Source of the DNA: an uncultured Planctomycetaceae bacterium
GTDB taxonomy: Bacteria; Planctomycetota; Planctomycetia; Planctomycetales; Planctomycetaceae
Direction: 5' to 3'
Assembly: GCA_963815195.1 (NCBI GenBank)
Contig: CAWFGE010000015.1
Location: 416,001 to 480,000, forward strand
Length of the DNA: 64,000 bases
Shown here in pieces: positions 45,113 through 55,354 of this stretch. A model generated the notes under the pieces. It was given only the letters and a program-made list of their open reading frames with translations, ran no database searches and had not been told where the DNA came from. Both the position numbers and the translations under genes were made by a program. The first letter of the stretch is position 1, and every line of letters starts with the position of its first letter.

Positions 45113-46735
45113 ATGTCTGTTCATTCCAAAATCCTCGAGAATCCAGCCCGTGCCGAAGGACCCGATCCGTTTGCTTGGACCTATTTCACGGAATATCTCG
45201 CCGCAAACAGAGAAAACGCCGCCTTGCTGCGCGAAATGGGAGAAACGATCAATCACTTTCGCCACGAAGCCCCGGAGATTCTGCTGCGGAAGTGTATGGA
45301 CGGCCGGACGAACACCACGGATCACAAAGGGTGCCCGCCAACAACTGTGGAAAACCAGCGGAGCGATGGCAACAAAGCGCTCGTCGATCCCAACAATACG
45401 GATTTCTGGCTGCCCATCCGAATCAAGATGGTTCGCGCGGCTTGCCGCACTCCCGGCAAGCCGGCGATTTTCATTACGGCCGCTCATCGATCGAAGCTCG
45501 CCGGATCGTGTGCGGCGTATGCCAAACCTCACGACCGTAAGGAGAACACGGACCGGCGTGCGCTCCAGGGAGTGATCGATCAGGCATTGGACGTGGAGAA
45601 TGCGCTATTCGGCACGCCGGACGCCGACCGGCTCTACTGTCTGGCTGCGATCACCAACACCGACATCGGCGCCATGGAACTGCACGTCCCAAGCGGCGAG
45701 CAACTGATCGACGCAGAGGAAGTGATGGCCCGCAATCGTTGGATGGCCCCGGGGCAGGTGTTCTCGCGAGAGTTTCTCGATCTTTCCATAAACGATCCCG
45801 ACGCGCACGAATCGATTCAGGGCCGGACATTGCGTTCGCTATTGTCGGGTCCGCCCGCCGAAGCGGTGGCGAACCAGCGTGTCAAGATCGCGATGGAGGC
45901 GTACCTGCTCAAGCAGTTCAACATGGTCTGCTCCAAAGGAGAGGATTTGCAGACGCTCGTAAGCCCATCGGCAGCGGAAGCCATCGGCCAGGCGCTCGAC
46001 CGGGCCGAGAGACTCCCTTCTTCGCTCGCGGGGTTCGTCGCTTATCTGATTGCCTGGAACCTCACCTATGCCCTTGAGCAAACGCGTCAACTGCTCCAAT
46101 TGGAGGAAAGTGACCCCGATGCGCTGGACCACCGCGTGGGTCACGATGAGCGGCTCATCGGCTACGGAAACGGGTTCGAAGCCGCGACCAAGCACAACAA
46201 CATGCTTCTGGTAAAGCCGGGCAGCGGCAACGACCGCCAAGCCATCAGCGTGGCCAGAAACGTCATTGAGGGCGTCGCCGAACGACGCCATCTCCCCAGA
46301 CGCCCTTTAGTCCATCTGAACATCGAGCTGGATGCCCCCATCACCACCTGGCAGCAACTGACCACCGTGCTCGCTCGCATGAACACCAAGATGGCAGTGA
46401 TTCGGAGCGTCTTCGGTGCGGACTCCCATGTGCGTGTGATGACGACATACTCATACTCTCATGGCGTGCAGGATGTCAATATTTCCAAGCAATTCTTTCC
46501 GCTCAACCCCAACCCCGCTGACCGGTTGATCGTTTGCCCTGAAAATCTGAGCGAAATCGACTCGCCTGATAACTTCTCCGCCGAGCGGTTACGGGAATTG
46601 GAGCATCGCTACACCAACTTGTCGGCGAATTCGGAGCCTGACGACCTCGCCGCCAAGCAGTCGGACTTTTCCATCGACCCATCGGACTATACCACTGACG
46701 AGTCAGACCTTGCCGCGGAGCAGTCGGACGGCTGA
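45113..46735 (+). CDS. CsoSCA-like (carboxysome-type) beta-carbonic anhydrase, stand-alone
   Basis: CMDGR (Cys-x-Asp-x-Arg), H..GSCAAY, TNTDIGAMELHVP and GHDERLIGYGNGF. From memory these parallel the CsoSCA motifs CADGR, H..GCAAH, DTDTDAIRVHVP and GHAERFI.VG.GF. Confidence 0.75.
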   Translation: MSVHSKILENPARAEGPDPFAWTYFTEYLAANRENAALLREMGETINHFRHEAPEILLRKCMDGRTNTTDHKGCPPTTVENQRSDGNKALVDPNNTDFWLPIRIKMVRAACRTPGKPAIFITAAHRSKLAGSCAAYAKPHDRKENTDRRALQGVIDQALDVENALFGTPDADRLYCLAAITNTDIGAMELHVPSGEQLIDAEEVMARNRWMAPGQVFSREFLDLSINDPDAHESIQGRTLRSLLSGPPAEAVANQRVKIAMEAYLLKQFNMVCSKGEDLQTLVSPSAAEAIGQALDRAERLPSSLAGFVAYLIAWNLTYALEQTRQLLQLEESDPDALDHRVGHDERLIGYGNGFEAATKHNNMLLVKPGSGNDRQAISVARNVIEGVAERRHLPRRPLVHLNIELDAPITTWQQLTTVLARMNTKMAVIRSVFGADSHVRVMTTYSYSHGVQDVNISKQFFPLNPNPADRLIVCPENLSEIDSPDNFSAERLRELEHRYTNLSANSEPDDLAAKQSDFSIDPSDYTTDESDLAAEQSDG

Positions 46736-46805: not shown

Positions 46806-48287
46806 TCAATCGCTGCCGAGGCCGAGTGTTGGACTTTGACTTCTTAGCGAGCTTTCTTGTTTCGGCGTACTCACTTGAGGCGTGGACTCCGTCTTCGGAA
46901 TTTCTCCGTTGCGCAGACGCAACAGTCCCAATGCCGCGTGGTATCTTGAAGTGACTCCCGGTTGTGGAAACACGCCCCCGCCAAGTATCAAGGCAATAAG
47001 TATCAACACGGCGATTCTTTCGCGGTAGCGCGCCCGAAGAGAAATGGATGCAGTATGGTGTGTTCCCGTAAAGACGCGAAAATACGCGGACAAAATCGCG
47101 ATTCCGTTTAATGCCATGGCAACGACGACCGCCATACCAGTAAGCGGATAAACGGTCACCGCCCCTTCGATCAGCAATTCCGTTCCCACAAAACCCACCG
47201 TGCCGGGAAAGCCGATCGAAGCCAGCCCTGTTACGAGAAACAAGGCGGCCAGCGTCGGAGTGTGTTCGTAGAGTCCATGATACTTGTTTAACGACACGCG
47301 GCCGGTTCGCGATTCCACGCAGCGAAGAGTCAGGCCGAATCCCGCCAGAGACACCCCGACCGAGATCCACACACACAAAGCGCCCGTCAACCCGATCGGA
47401 GTGACCAATTCCAGTCCGACAAGGACCAGCGAGGAATTGCTGAGAAACAGGTAGCAAAAGAACCGCCTCGCATCGTGCTGTACGAGTGCCATGCCGCCTG
47501 CATAAACCGCCGTGAAGAGAGACGCGAGCGCGATACTTTGGAGAGCCCAGGCGGGGGCAATCGGCAGCACCAGCCGTATCACGGCGTACGCGCCGGTGAT
47601 GGGCGTGACAAACAGCAGAGCCGTTCCGAAGGTGGCTTTTTCAAACAGATCCGTCATCCAGCAATGCAGCGGGACAATGCCGCTCCGCAAGAGGCCGGCC
47701 GTGGTCAACATCGCGCCAGCGATGAGCCGAATCCCGGAATTGGGAGACGTCCGATCTACCAAAAACTGGCCGACCAGAAGCAATGCGACAAATAGGCCCA
47801 TGTGAACGGAATAAACTCTCGTCGAACGATGTCGACCACGGATGACAACAAACGGCGGAATGGTGGCGGCGGACAAAAGGACAACGAGCCCCCAAGGATC
47901 CCGGCAACTTAAAGTCGCAAGCAAGATCGCCTCTGACGTCAACGTCCACCCAAACGAAAAACGACTCACCTTGGTCCGCAACGTGGCCAGCACCGTCATT
48001 AAAAACAGAAGCGCGGCAAGCGGCAGCAGCGGCGCGCTCAGTTCGTCAACGACAAACACATCTCTGTGAAAAAGCGTACTGAGCACGTCCCAGTGATCGT
48101 GCGCTTCGAACGCGTGGACGGTGCCAAAGTCGATCCATTCTCCGACCGCAAAGACCAACGTAAGCGTGCAAATGACCACGCAGGTCGTCCATGCAACTTC
48201 GCGGTTCCGCAGAAACCCCACACCCATTGCACCAAGCAAGGGAGTTAAGACGGAGAGTTCCAGCCAGGGCAAGTGGAGTTCAGGCAT
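46806..48287 (-). CDS. Proton-conducting antiporter-like membrane subunit (NuoM-like), third subunit of DAB-type complex
   Basis: Multi-[35 protein letters not shown]; start overlaps the upstream stop. Confidence 0.85.
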
Positions 48288-49675
48288 CAGACGAATTCCT
48301 CTAACGATCCGGTTTGCAAGTCCACATTGTCAACTTCACCGGACTCTCCGCCCGACAAGAGATCCGTCCAGCGGCGTTCCATACGATCGCACCAGTGGAA
48401 GACTGCAATAAACGGGCGGACAATGTATTCATTCAAGATTGCGTCGAGGAACCCGCGTTCCATCGCGAATCGATATAACCAGGTACGGCCGATGTGCTGA
48501 ACGGCGGGTTCCCGAGGTTCCTGCTCGTTTTCAGAGTGATGCGCACCGATGGCGTTTTCAATTGTGTGGTAGTCGTGCAAAAGCGAGGGGGCTCGCAGTA
48601 ATTGCAACGTCCGCAGACAGGCATGTCCGATTATGTGGATCAGCGGGATGTAGCGCAGACCGAAGCCGATCTCAGCCACAATCAGCCCCACCTGTGTGAG
48701 CGACGCGAACGCCAACGCACACTTGACGTCCGATTGGACTCGCGCCGCGAGAGTTCCAAAAACCGCCGAAACCAGTCCCAGGACCACGACCGCGATGCTA
48801 AACAGTAAAGACGCTTCCAGGAGCGGGCTGACTCGCAAGAGCAGAAACGCCCCCAGATGGACGGATAGGGCTCCATAAAACACGGCGCTCGATGGTGTAG
48901 GGCCTTCCATGGCGCGGGGCAGCCAACCGCTGAAAGGAATCAAGGCGGACTTGCCGGCGACGGCGATCAAGAGCAACAGGCCGACGAATAGCGCGTGGGA
49001 TTGGGAGATGGTGGCGTGACTGTCGGGCCAAGGTCCGGACCGCATCAGACCGTCAAAGTCGCCGGCACCGGTCAAATGATGCAGCGTCAGGGCCGCAATC
49101 AAAAACGCCGCATCACTAATGCGGTAAACCGCCCAGACCCGTTGGCCGTTGAGAACGGGGTTTCGCCGTTCATGAAAATACGCAACCAGCAAAGCTGACG
49201 ACAACCCGACGAGTTCCCAACCGAAAAACAATGTTTCGATTGTTCCCGCGAGGGAGGACACGACCATACCGAGGAGAAATACAGCATAAAACACAAAGTA
49301 GCGTCCGTAGCCCGGTTCGCGATGCAGGTATCGGCTGGTGAAAGCGCCGATCGTTCCGGTCAGAACAAATGTCAGAACGACGAAAGGCACCGACAATCGG
49401 TCAAAAATGAACTTGAGATGAAAGTGAAAGTTTTGTTCGTGAATGACGACCCAGTCGCCGATTTCTATAGGCACATATCGGATGCCGAGCCCCAGCATCA
49501 TAATCAGAATCGCGACCGATGCGGTGAGTCCGACGACCACCGCCCCTTGGGTTAAGTGAGCCAACGCGCGCTCCCCCAGCGGACGTCCCAAAAGGGCCGA
49601 CAAACCGAACACCGCCAGCAATGCACTCGGGCTTGCGACAATACAGATTCCCAAAATAGTAAATACTGTTAGCAA
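48287..49675 (-). CDS. dabB: DabB / NuoL-like membrane subunit of inorganic carbon pump
   Basis: [65 protein letters not shown]; directly downstream of the DUF2309 gene. Confidence 0.88.
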
Positions 49676-49771: not shown

Positions 49772-52700
49772 TCACCCTGTCCGAGCGACCGTTTCCACGG
49801 CGGGAGTCGATTTGGCCGGCGCCAACGGGAGTTTCCGGATTGAGCAAAATCCAAGGTGGTCGCGCCAGCCGCGATACCAATCGAGGGACGACTCCTCGGC
49901 GGGCAACTCATCCGTCTCCGGTTGATAGGGAATGAAATCTCCTCGGACATAACGATGAACCTGTGTTTTCCCGGCGTCAAACACCGCCAGTTGAACCCAT
50001 TCCCCATTGACCAGTTGGGCAATGGCCGGGTTGTCGTCGATAATCCGCTGCATGGCGTCGAGGGATGTTTCGACGACGAAAAGCAACCGCACCGGTTCGT
50101 GGATTTCGACCATTTGCCAGGGCAAGCCAGGACGAAGGTCGCTGGCCGCACCATCCATAACCCCCAAGAGAGATGTGATGTTGTGCGGAAGTTTGGTGCC
50201 GCAACCGTATCCGGTCGGGTCCACGAACGAGAAATAGTATTCCAGATTGATTCCGGCACAGACGGGGATGACGGCTTGCAGCATCCGTTCCAGAATGGAA
50301 CTGCGTTCGTCGTCCTGAGCGGGATCATACGAAGTCAAAAACGCCCGGCGGTCAAGGAACAACCCGCGGCTCCAATCTCGACGACCGACGAAACATAACG
50401 CATTGGTGGCATGACCGTATTCGGGCCGCGTTTGGGACAAGTCTTCGGCGCGTCCTTCCACGTGGCGAAGCGCCGATTCGACCGAAATCGACAATTCCGC
50501 CGACTCGAATCGCCGGCAGCGTTCGTGAGCGCTGCGTTTGCGCGCCTCGTTAATCTCCGCCTTGGCGATTTCGAAGAGAGCGCGATGTCGAATGGAAACC
50601 CGGTCGACGTCGTACCACGTGACGCTGTCGTCACAGGTGTTATGGTAGCAACCGACAAACAACGTCTCATCCGAAATATTGATCCCGCGATCGGTCAGAA
50701 GCCGGCGGACACGCAAGTCGTTGGCCATTTGGGCGAAGGCGCGCGCGTTTGGTCCGCCGCGGCCGCCGCCGCAGGCCCCGCAATCGTGTGCGGCTTCATG
50801 CGGGTTGTTGAGACTGGCGGAACCGTGACCGCAAATCACAACGAGCCGCGAAAGCAATTCCACGTTTGCCAGTCCGAGTGCCCGGAGCCCCCCTTCAACG
50901 ATGGCCGCCATCTCGTCGATTGTGTAGCCGATGTGTCCGTCCGTTGGTCCGGGGTCGGCTTCGACCCTTTCGATCCGCAATTCCGTCACGGGCGATTGCA
51001 CGATCCTGCCGAACAGCCTTCGGATTTGTGCCGCGGTCCGCGGGAAGAGCACGCGCGCCACCAACGGAAACGCCGCCAATGACCCGAGCAGGCCGGCCGC
51101 CAGTCCGCCCAAAAAGGTCCGCGTGCCTCGGTGAGCCTGTTTCGTGGCCTGCCCGAGTCGCCGCCGGGCCTCCGCCCGCCGGCGCCCCGATTCCGCCTGG
51201 GTGCAAAGCGGCTCTTCCGTCACGTAATGTTGGGGCCTGATGCTCACCGGGCAAAGTGGTTTGAAGTGAGCATCCGTTGCCCCGCGGTAATACATCGCCA
51301 CACCAAAAAAACCGGCGATGCCAAAGGTTTCGCACTCGGGATCAATTTCCTCAAGGTGGCGGCGGAAGGATTCCTCCCGCTCATCGATGCAGCACGTCAC
51401 TTGAAATCGTGGAACGGAACGGCGGGTGTCGTCCTCGCTTGCCCGTTTTCGTTTGGAATGGGCAATCACCGCGTCGAGCGTCTCGTTTCTGTATTTCTGC
51501 TCGAATGCAAGGTGAAATACTCTTCGGCGTTCGAGTCCTGGGAAGTCGTCGATCTCCCGAATCAGTGCCGCCCACTGCTGCCTCGTTAAATGTTGCAGGT
51601 CTTCAGGTTTCCAACCCCGCACTTGGGCAAGTTGGAACACGATGAATGTTCGTCGATTTAATCCGTTCGCATCACCCTGGGGCAACCGCTGGATCGCCAC
51701 CTCACGAACGCCTCGCAGTTCCCCTCGGAATCCCAACGACTCTCGCGCCACATCGGCGATCGCCAAGCGTTCCAGGATCAGCCGAACGGCAAGGTACTCG
51801 GCGAGACTGCCAGGCGGGGCCGTACGAGGCATCCATTCCGCATTGGTCTCCATTTGCCAGACCATTCCGGCCCAACCGCGCAGCGCGAGCAGCGATCGTT
51901 CGACAAAACGATCCCGTTCATCGTCGGCCACCCCCAGGAGGGAAAGTGACTCTCCAATCGACTCCAGCGGACCGATCTCCGAATCCAGCAGTCGCCGCGC
52001 TTCATTCTTCAAGCCGGACAACCAAGGGGTCGGTGAAGCAAACGACACGCGATGGAGATTCAAGAACGCCCGGTAGATGCCCAAATCCCGGTTCGGAAGT
52101 TCCCAACTTGCAAAGCCCTGATCCAGAAAAGCCGAGCAGAAGCGAATCAACTGTTCATTCACCAGGACATTCACGTCCACTCCCGTAACTGCGAGCAATA
52201 GCTCGCGGTGTTGGAGCAACGGTCTTGGCCCGGTTGAGTGGACGGCGTCCGCTTCTACGGACCGCACGCCATTTTGACACACCCTCCAGAGAAAGTTCAA
52301 CGTGAACGCTTCCCAAGTCCTTTCGGTCCACGATTCCATTGACCTCCGATTGAATTGCTGTAAGACATCCGACAAAACCCGCTTTGCCGAATTCTCTCGA
52401 GAAGGATCACTGCTCCGAAGATCGCGCATCACCCAATGGCTGGTATCAGCAATTATGCGCTTGCGGACGGCGGGGGGGGCATCGTTCCGAAATCGCCTCA
52501 AAGCATCGGTTTCAGCGATCCCCCATCGTAATTCGGCGGAAGGTCCGGACCGCAGGGGAAACTGCAACATCGCCAGTCGGAGATCAAATCGCGTGCCAAA
52601 AATTGCAACGAGACGGTCCGCTTCCTGACCAAGGTCATCCAGCAAGACCGATTCCAAGTCTTTCAACCGGATGCGGCCTTGTTCAAATTTCTGACGATAT

Positions 52701-52965
52701 GCTTCTTCCGGCAGATACGCGTTACAAGAAAACAGCACCCCCCCGCTTTGACCCCCGCATCAAAGGGCAGGTCCTCGAACGAGTGCAACGTGTTGTGATG
52801 AACGAAGACCTCAATCGGCCCCTGGGCCGGGAGAAAATGAGCTGCGTGTTCAATGACATGCTGAATGTGACGGAGGTCACAATGGTCTTCTGCGCCGTGT
52901 GGAGGCGACAAACCTTGGCCCGACTTGCCTTCGACAAATGTATTTGTCGCATTGTTCATTTGCAT
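49772..52965 (-). CDS. dabA: DabA / DUF2309 (UPF0753) putative inorganic carbon transporter subunit; frameshift in the homopolymer at 52738-52744
   Basis: [100 protein letters not shown]. Confidence 0.92.
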
Positions 52966-52997
52966 TACAGATGTCCCCAAAAATGATTCTTTCGTCG

Positions 52998-53021
52998 CAA
53001 CTCAATCAAGCTGTTGAGTTG
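52998..53021. promoter_or_regulatory. Inverted repeat in the dabA leader (operator or RNA hairpin)
   Basis: CAACTCAA-N8-TTGAGTTG, about 33 nt upstream of the dabA ATG. Confidence 0.45.
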
Positions 53022-53137
53022 TCAAGCTGCCTGGGATCAAGAGGGATGCAAGATCGTCTCTGTCCGCAGACAATGCGTGTAGCCCCCGATGACGCGTTCA
53101 TGATCGGGTGTTACAGAGAACTGGGGCGCTCAGGCCG

Positions 53138-53476
53138 CTAAACGGGTGGCCCGCGAGAGAGCCAGGCTTCCGATCGACGAATCGCACCGCCAAGCGAACG
53201 ACCAACGGTTCCTGGAGAATCTTGCTTGGAGAGAACGAAAGGGACTTTGCCGATTAACGCGTCGCCGACCAGACAATCCCAGAGCGGGGCCGGATGATCA
53301 TCCTCGACCTCTTCTGCCGAATCGGTGCACTGCTGGGGCGGTTCGGCCTTCCCGAAAGGACCAAAGTTCACACGATTGCTGGAGACGTACAAAGAGAACG
53401 TGGCACACACAATCAGCAGTGTTACGCAGTTCGAGAGCGAAAAAACTGGAAGCCCAGAGAGGATAGATTGCCGCAT
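53138..53476 (-). CDS. Small hydrophobic upstream ORF ending in RGPP; candidate ribosome-arrest leader peptide (DUF2946-like architecture)
   Basis: 112 aa, AGGA RBS, N-terminal hydrophobic helix, C-terminus EAWLSRGPPV*; co-directional with and about 170 nt upstream of dabA. Confidence 0.6.
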   Translation of the reverse strand: MRQSILSGLPVFSLSNCVTLLIVCATFSLYVSSNRVNFGPFGKAEPPQQCTDSAEEVEDDHPAPLWDCLVGDALIGKVPFVLSKQDSPGTVGRSLGGAIRRSEAWLSRGPPV

Positions 53477-53488
53477 GTTCCGGTCCTA

Positions 53489-54021: not shown

Positions 54022-55354
54022 ATGCATTCATCGCCCAGCACCAAACGCTTGCTGCTGTTCGCCATCGGAGTTGTGCTTTCGGTGGGATCCGTAGCGATTG
54101 CCGCCGAGCGGCCGAATATTCTGATCCTTTTCACCGATGACCAGGGCTATGCGGATCTCGGCTGCTTTGGAAACCAGAAGAACAAGACGCCTCGGCTCGA
54201 CCAGTTGGCCAAGGAAGGCACGCGGTTCACTTCGTTTTATGCCCAGACCGTGTGCGGGCCGTCCCGGTCGGCTTTGCTCACCGGGCGACATCCGATCCGC
54301 AGCCGCGGGTGGAGCATGCCCGCGTCCGAGATCACCTTCGCGGAACTCGCGCGGAGCAGGTTATCAAACCGCTTGCTTCGGCAAATGGGATGTCTCGAAC
54401 CGCCGGGCGATTGTCGAGCGGATGCCGAACGCCCAAGGGTTCGATGACTACTTCGGCACGCTGGGCGCCAACGACAGCGGGCAGGTCGCCTTTCACGAGA
54501 ACAATGAAAAAGCGGGTTCCACCAGCGACATGGGGAGCCTCACGACGCTTTACACGAACAAGGCGATCTCGTATCTCAAGGAAAAACGCGATCCGAAAAA
54601 GCCGTTCGTGCTGTACGTGGCCCATAATATGATGCACACGATCATCGGGGCCTCTAAGCGGTTCCGGGGCACGTCCAAAGGCGACCTTTACGGCGATGTG
54701 GTCGAGGAGTTCGACTACGAAACCGGCCGACTGCTCGATGTGCTCGACGAGTTGGGGCTACGGGAAAACACGCTCGTAATCTACACCAGCGACAACGGCC
54801 CCTGGAACCAGCCCAAATACACCGACCGCAAAAAGGGGCATCCCGAAGGCTCCATTTTCTGGGGCGAGGCGGGGCCGTTGCGGAACGGCAAAGGCTCTTG
54901 TTACGAGGGCGGCTACCGCCTGCCTTGCCTCGTGCGCTGGCCGGGCAAGGTCCCCGCGGGACGCGTTTCCGATGGCGTTTTCGCCACGATCGATTTCCTG
55001 CCCACGTTCGCGGCGCTCTGCGGTTTTGAAGTGCCGAAGGACCGCCGGATCGACGGCATCGATCAGACCAAACTGCTCTTCGGCGAAAGCGAAACGGGGA
55101 GAGAGGATTTCTATTTTCACAACGCCGGCGTTCGCCAGGGCAAGTGGAAGTATCTGAAGCCCGACGCCCATTTCTTCGGCTACGCGATCGAGGACGACCG
55201 CAAGAAACAGGATGAGCTGTACGACCTCGAAGCCGACGTCGGCGAGAAGACGAATCTCGCGGCCAAATTTCCCGAAAAGGTCGCCGAGCTCAAGGCCTTG
55301 ATGCGGTCGATCGAAGGCAAGGACGACCCCAAGATGCCGCAGAATATTCGCTGA
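54022..55354 (+). CDS. Sulfatase (arylsulfatase A-like, Cys-type); frameshift near 54350
   Basis: Signal peptide, RPNILILFTDDQGYAD, CGPSRSALLTG, GYQTACFGKW, TSDNGP, YEGGYRLP, LYDLEADVGEKTNLA. Confidence 0.93.

Follow-up and report, generated by a model that had tools for sequence, protein, structure and literature searches.

The regulation of DAB-type CO2 pumps in heterotrophs has been little studied. The window analyzed here, a stretch of 64,000 nt from an uncultured Planctomycetaceae bacterium, contains a dab operon preceded on the same strand by a small ORF that ends in RGPP. The questions raised by this locus are whether the small protein is an arrest leader of the pump genes and, if so, which signal it reads.

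The leader and the dab operon

The preliminary description reported a 112-aa ORF with a ribosome binding site, a hydrophobic N-terminus, and an RGPPV-stop end, 172 nt before a same-strand dabA. The sequence agrees with this, and all of these features lie on the minus strand (Table 1). The same description listed a "C..C" element together with an acidic run; the run, EEVEDD, is present, but CxxC is absent from the leader, whose four cysteines are residues 17, 24, 50, and 68. The leader matches no Pfam family at E values up to 1, including DUF2946, and no NCBIfam family of note. In its AlphaFold model, a helix spanning residues 14–36 is the sole confident element, and the remainder is predicted to be unstructured (pTM 0.33). 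DNA contigs from sequencing runs cover parts of the leader and show no differences from it. A promoter and terminator scan of the minus-strand spacer detected no sigma-70-like promoter and no terminator-like site.

Table 1. Positions of the leader, its parts, and the neighboring genes within the window
Feature	Coordinates	Strand	Remarks
Leader ORF, 112 aa, RGPPV-stop C-terminus	53138..53476	-	Sequence; listed among the called genes of the protein collection
Shine-Dalgarno-like AGGA, 7 nt 5' of the leader ATG	53484..53487	-	Sequence
Predicted signal anchor or signal peptide; hydrophobic residues 17-31	53384..53428	-	Hydropathy 2.31
EEVEDD acidic patch (residues 55-60); distance to the last motif Pro, 52-57 residues	53297..53314	-	
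RGPP motif codons, residues 108-111 of 112	53144..53155	-	No column other than R, P, and P is invariant
172-nt spacer, leader stop to dabA start	52966..53137	-	Sequence; GGGGA at 52974-52978
dabA, in two PF10070 pieces	49772..52965	-	Frameshift at 7-base homopolymer 52738-52744; ATG at 52965
NuoL-like membrane subunit (DabB-like)	48287..49675	-	PF00361 + PF00662; NuoL models best, under cut-off
Third operon gene, NuoM-like membrane subunit	46806..48287	-	PF00361; NuoM models best, under cut-off
Convergent 540-aa gene, candidate CsoSCA-like beta-carbonic anhydrase	45113..46735	+	Atlas features 0.91-0.94, low recognition score

By its domains, the target operon is of the DAB inorganic-carbon pump type, with a PF10070 subunit that carries the zinc-ligand motifs CxDxR, GHGS, and DCG and with PF00361 partners. 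The dabA gene of three relatives is in frame across the homopolymer spot at which dabA is interrupted here, where no sequencing contig spans the frameshift, and the interruption is likely an assembly error. Further frameshifts are seen in the sulfatase gene beside the leader (at 54347) and in another gene at about 58500. An independent contig carries a 2-base insertion at 54347, and the assembly therefore probably contains indel errors. In the product of the convergent gene, an unannotated protein, the residues C61, D63, R65, H125, and C133 (CxDxR plus His and Cys) are invariant, and 12 relatives have been found. Its match to 2fgy is weak (E 0.44), and the protein is, as a lead only, a probable CsoSCA-like beta-carbonic anhydrase.

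Leaders upstream of dabA and SulP genes

A DabA match was obtained in 199 of 300 family genomes. Loci were mapped for the 155 better-scoring matches, leaving out 71 weaker ones, and five loci that were too short or truncated were removed, so that 150 loci from 142 genomes were left, 143 of these loci in the family. A leader was scored where a same-strand ORF ending in R[AG]PP lies 150–750 nt from the DabA match. Such an ORF occurs at 30 of the 150 loci, in 14 genera, which bears out the earlier expectation of conserved uORFs with this ending upstream of dabA homologs. The control motifs were found at these loci far less often (A[AG]PP 0, PP[AG]R 4, P[AG]PR 0, RP[AG]P 0, antisense 1). In the source genome, from which the window comes, the R[AG]PP tail has a base rate of 31 in 5157 genes, and adding a hydrophobic filter brings this down to 1 in 5157. 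A motif-blind scan for the architecture, a hydrophobic segment plus an acidic patch, was run on the other 120 loci and returned 11 sense and 0 antisense candidates, of which seven end in RPPP, two share another tail, and two are noise-like. The leader is thus present at 37 of the 150 dabA loci (30 RAPP/RGPP and 7 RPPP) and in 16 of the 51 family genera. Gimesia species are also carriers of the leader. Against 0 loci for AAPP/AGPP and 1 in antisense, this is not a chance occurrence.

The RAPP/RGPP motif is replaced by RPPP in the dabA leaders of two genera and in a single leader of SulP (L154, L158, L160, L161, L164, L165, L170, and L300). Two loci of one genus (L022 and L175) have the same hydrophobic segment and acidic patch about 406–408 nt 5' of the DabA match with a tail that ends in RLSLLGRLLV, and the leader at L343 has yet another non-RAPP tail; from their sequences, the tails of these three leaders are possible new arrest motifs. 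In the other families of the class, the motif together with the architecture occurs at 1 of 65 dabA loci; one additional leader there has RSPP in its tail, and the tail of another is different.

The remaining 113 of the 150 dabA loci, including those of all three same-genus relatives, have no leader. On a FastTree phylogeny of DabA, the presence of the leader needs 13 label changes compared to a mean of 26.7 in shuffles, and its distribution is therefore clustered but patchy, a pattern that would fit one origin followed by losses as well as repeated recruitment. All four proline codons are in use in the motif, and close pairs of leaders differ mainly at third positions, with 7 synonymous compared to 1 non-synonymous differences in one such pair. 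This synonymous variation of the motif codons argues that selection acts on the peptide. Together with the conserved position, length, architecture, and motif, it supports the arrest-type leader that had been proposed ahead of the DAB operon. Judged by these sequence features, the leader is very probably a RAPP-class arrest leader of inorganic-carbon uptake genes, on which the ribosome would stall at RGPP and so govern the genes downstream. Many RAPP-like sequences do not stall efficiently, as described in part of PMC10987492.

The leader is not confined to dabA. A paralog on contig C13 of the source genome sits 5' of a SulP gene and shares the acidic stretch and the RGPP end, and the two paralogs also have Asp-His-Pro and Asp-Cys-Leu stretches in common. 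No leader was seen at the other SulP gene of this genome, on contig C10. Located 5' of the C13 SulP leader (L190, about 794170-797750, minus strand) are two response regulators, a CusS-like histidine kinase, and a frameshifted gene that is PII-like by eye; a kinase is also found 5' of SulP in three relatives without a leader. Among 30 SulP loci, five have a leader, and all five are within the nine closest.

A profile built from 29 leaders of dabA and SulP genes was run over 301 family genomes, with 16 candidates scored per genome, and gave 50 matches, 35 of them known already. Twelve of the 15 new matches end in R[AG]PP and precede SulP (10), DabA (1), or a HyfB-like gene (1); this target specificity is partly circular, since dabA and SulP leaders had served as the training set and only these candidates were scored. 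The other three lack the motif and were dropped. A Pfam check of the new SulP targets covered 9 of the 10. A class-wide profile search added eight matches, five before SulP and one before DabA; the remaining two lack the motif and were dropped as false.

The Hyf-like operon behind the HyfB-linked leader ends in a SulP gene. Among the operons for Hyf-like membrane complexes (L251, L302, L303, and L008), this SulP ending is seen in one genome and a place directly before dabA in another. Because they adjoin SulP or dabA, these operons are tied to carbon uptake. For one leader-linked SulP subfamily, the BicA model gives the highest score, 422–431 bits, which is under the cut-off of 880. In 7 of 10 loci of another subfamily, the SulP gene is directly 3' of the NuoM-like gene of the dab operon, and one member of this subfamily is fused to a C-terminal PII domain (L252:1610-3601, minus strand). 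From these sequence relationships we infer that the leader-linked SulPs are likely bicarbonate transporters, and linkage to the leader suggests which planctomycete SulP proteins carry bicarbonate. Since one leader design recurs before two unrelated transporter families, its targets form a candidate carbon-uptake regulon.

An unbiased census of the source genome alone gave 18 loose-filter candidates, including the two acidic leaders of dabA and SulP and one His-rich leader that bears CxxC. The latter (C13:1125780-1126304, minus strand) ends in RGPP, lies 5' of a DUF1559-type gene, and is of the CruR-like metal type. A first scan had given only two real leaders in the source genome, a result overturned by this third one, and the claim has therefore been narrowed to two leaders of the acidic type.

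The acidic patch and the signal it may read

The mean column identity of the aligned leaders is about 20% (21%), and beyond the R, P, and P of the motif the conserved features are an N-terminal hydrophobic segment and an acidic patch. The N-terminal segment has a hydropathy of 2.07–3.15, and the tail after the motif has 1–14 residues, in 35 of 35 leaders. In a non-redundant set of 31 leaders (mutual identity <50%), the end of the hydrophobic segment lies 66–79 aa from the Arg in every leader. The most acidic 12-mer is centered 42–57 residues before the Arg in 30 of the 31, compared to a mean of 10.5 and a maximum of 18 in linker shuffles, the window of 38–58 having been picked after inspection of the data. 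Asp and Glu make up 37–43% of the residues at distances of 41–55 and 10–17% at distances of 1–35 in these 31 leaders. A net charge of -5 or lower in the patch window is found in 24 of the 31, whereas only 2% of the control ORFs, 762 sequences with a hydrophobic N-terminus, reach this value; two Gimesia-type dabA leaders have a net charge near zero there. The net-negative peak of the family is 46 residues from the last Pro, with a span of about 41–60, and the run of the source leader falls in the distal part of this span (Table 1). Among 46 newly listed library matches, which include some duplicates and come without genomic context, the motif is present in 45, and the patch is at 40–57 in 43 of these.

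A precedent for this spacing is CruR (Bp2923, DUF2946) of Bordetella pertussis, in which, according to sections of PMC9426467, a distance of 45 residues separates the sensing CxxC from RAPP, stalling blocks Rho termination, and copper frees the stall without a signal peptide. Because the acidic patch fills the CxxC slot of CruR, sensing or force generation by the leader is probably the task of this patch. Acidic residues at a similar distance are known to be pulled on by the membrane potential. In E. coli SecYEG, as reported in part of 10.1101/310698, a five-aspartate segment behind a membrane anchor experiences a potential-dependent pull with a peak at L+n of about 50, and this peak is lower with indole and is gone in a simulation without potential. 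DAB activity itself requires a membrane potential or a cation gradient, according to parts of PMC13144422 and 10.1101/476713. Based on these three observations, the position of the patch, the pull near the same distance, and the dependence of DAB on potential, a readout of membrane potential is favored. We tentatively propose, as a plausible reading that we would not call probable, that the arrest leader gauges membrane potential to control carbon-uptake genes.

In the proposed mechanism, a ribosome stalled at RGPP would govern the downstream genes, and the hydrophobic segment would dock this ribosome on the Sec translocon, so that the acidic patch would lie within the channel. At a normal potential (positive outside), the acidic residues would be drawn outward and the stall released; under a weak potential the stall would stay. 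By analogy with CruR, the stalled ribosome would then shield the spacer from Rho, so that the operon would be transcribed. Rho is encoded in the source genome. The C-G skew of the spacers is 0.07 compared to 0.02 (p 0.04), a weak bias of C over G whose p is overstated by related genomes, and their pyrimidine fraction is 0.57 compared to 0.51. No conserved hairpin, RNA structure, or Shine-Dalgarno switch was found, the folding z being near zero in most of 30 loci, and a modelled stalled ribosome left the dabA Shine-Dalgarno sequence unopened. The boldest version of the proposal is a natural voltmeter, in which the potential would be read by the acidic patch while it is held in the Sec translocon and would set the expression of a planctomycete inorganic-carbon regulon of DAB, several SulP subfamilies, and the Hyf-like operon, with look-alike leaders upstream of SulP genes in other phyla; as a whole, we regard this version as doubtful. 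The spacing is not specific to a readout of membrane potential, because the CxxC of CruR has the 45-residue spacing as well, with a release that needs no signal peptide, and the patch of the source leader lies slightly past the optimum of the five-aspartate segment.

SecM, ApdA, ApdP, MifM, and VemP are Sec/YidC monitoring substrates. The leader could likewise monitor Sec/YidC capacity, in the manner of SecM, MifM, or ApdA/ApdP, and pace the synthesis of large multi-pass transporters, with the acidic patch merely aiding translocation. The hydrophobic N-terminus at a fixed distance in all 31 leaders would fit such a role, as would the polytopic membrane proteins encoded by every target operon, and passages of PMC12992588 describe a translocation-driven pull as the established way in which arrest is relieved in this class. 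The targets, however, are limited to DabA, SulP, and one Hyf-SulP operon and do not extend to membrane proteins broadly, and known monitors sit upstream of the machinery genes themselves, which makes a capacity monitor unlikely.

Alternatively, the patch could act just beyond the exit tunnel, as in CruR, by binding protons or a hard cation (Mg, Ca, Na, or K), with folding freeing the stall independently of the translocon. The patch does occupy the CxxC position of CruR, which needs no signal peptide, and it is the sole conserved chemical feature of the linker. On the other hand, an invariant acidic column and a fixed ligand geometry are both missing, and the linker is predicted to be unstructured. 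Moreover, carboxylate pKa values are well under cytoplasmic pH. Binding of this kind is therefore improbable.

The favored reading, like both of these alternatives, assumes a regulated role. The ORF might instead encode an exported small protein, or be an element that stalls ribosomes constitutively, and exert no signal-dependent control, with dabA transcribed from its own promoter. The length of the 172-nt spacer, the lack of a conserved RNA coupling element, and the many dabA loci without a leader would agree with this. It is nevertheless quite improbable, as the same design is found before unrelated transporter families and the C-terminal motif, which proteomes avoid according to passages of PMC12992588, is kept at such low column identity.

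The preliminary description had also suggested zinc as a signal. In this case the leader would sense zinc through Cys and His and match its supply to the zinc enzyme DabA, which binds zinc according to parts of PMC13144422 and 10.1101/476713. The leaders have a median of 4 Cys and 2 His, and the two source-genome paralogs share the stretches containing His and Cys mentioned above. No Cys or His column is conserved, however, 1 of the 31 non-redundant leaders contains CxxC and 2 contain a His cluster, and 10 of the 31 have at most one Cys 3' of the hydrophobic segment. The His/CxxC-type RGPP leader before the DUF1559-type gene is quite unlike them, and most DUF1559-linked leaders of the published list (among 30 of 58 places listed) are His- or CxxC-rich by eye. 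As Cys and His are not conserved and the targets other than DAB are mostly SulP transporters, zinc sensing is unsupported and very unlikely.

Comparison with known arrest leaders

Small secretory or membrane proteins ending in RAPP/RGPP precede diverse genes beyond those of protein localization, according to passages of Fujiwara et al. 2025 (PMC12992588). The leader resembles those described in them in being a small ORF with an N-terminal localization signal and a C-terminal RAPP/RGPP, followed by a same-strand gene. The supplementary uORF list of that paper has at least 15 rows with a SulP gene downstream, and the pairing with SulP is therefore already tabulated there; about 5 of 15 listed SulP rows have, by eye, an acidic cluster 40–50 residues before the Arg. 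The top-30 RAPP groups do not include SulP, section 13 of the results makes no mention of it, and the acidic-patch feature was not found in the passages covered. DabA terms have no match in the main text or in part of the supplements, a scope that does not extend to the RGPP list and Appendix Fig. S2. In the wider literature, in which subscription journals were thinly covered, no paper was found that ties a RAPP leader to DabA or bicarbonate transport, nothing relevant was found on DAB in planctomycetes, and no natural potential-sensing arrest regulator was found. What is new here is the acidic module at a fixed spacing and the target set of carbon-uptake transporters.

By its sequence, the leader belongs to the RAPP/RGPP class and is not a CruR/DUF2946 member. 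As described in the sections of PMC9426467, CruR is similarly an exported leader with a C-terminal RAPP, a sensor module about 45 residues upstream, and an intergenic spacer, and a Rho-based model is possible for both. In contrast to CruR and CutF, the present leader has neither CxxC nor DUF2946 but an acidic patch, and its targets are carbon transporters rather than copper uptake. At the slot where CruR-type leaders carry Cys or His, acidic residues would represent a third sensor chemistry.

With SecM, ApdA, ApdP, MifM, and VemP, as treated in part of PMC10987492, the leader shares a membrane-targeted nascent chain and a force-sensitive arrest motif. Unlike SecM, ApdA, ApdP, and MifM, which act on secA, secDF, or yidC, it is linked to DabA, SulP, and HyfB-like genes. 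The acidic residues of MifM are within its stalling sequence according to the same part of PMC10987492, whereas here the patch is located 41–60 residues upstream of the arrest site. The leader also resembles the LepB-D5-SecM force sensors described in part of 10.1101/310698, in which an acidic segment behind a membrane anchor lies about 50 residues from the arrest site. Those sensors are artificial E. coli constructs, and if the patch reads membrane potential, the leader would be a natural use of a force so far known from engineered constructs.
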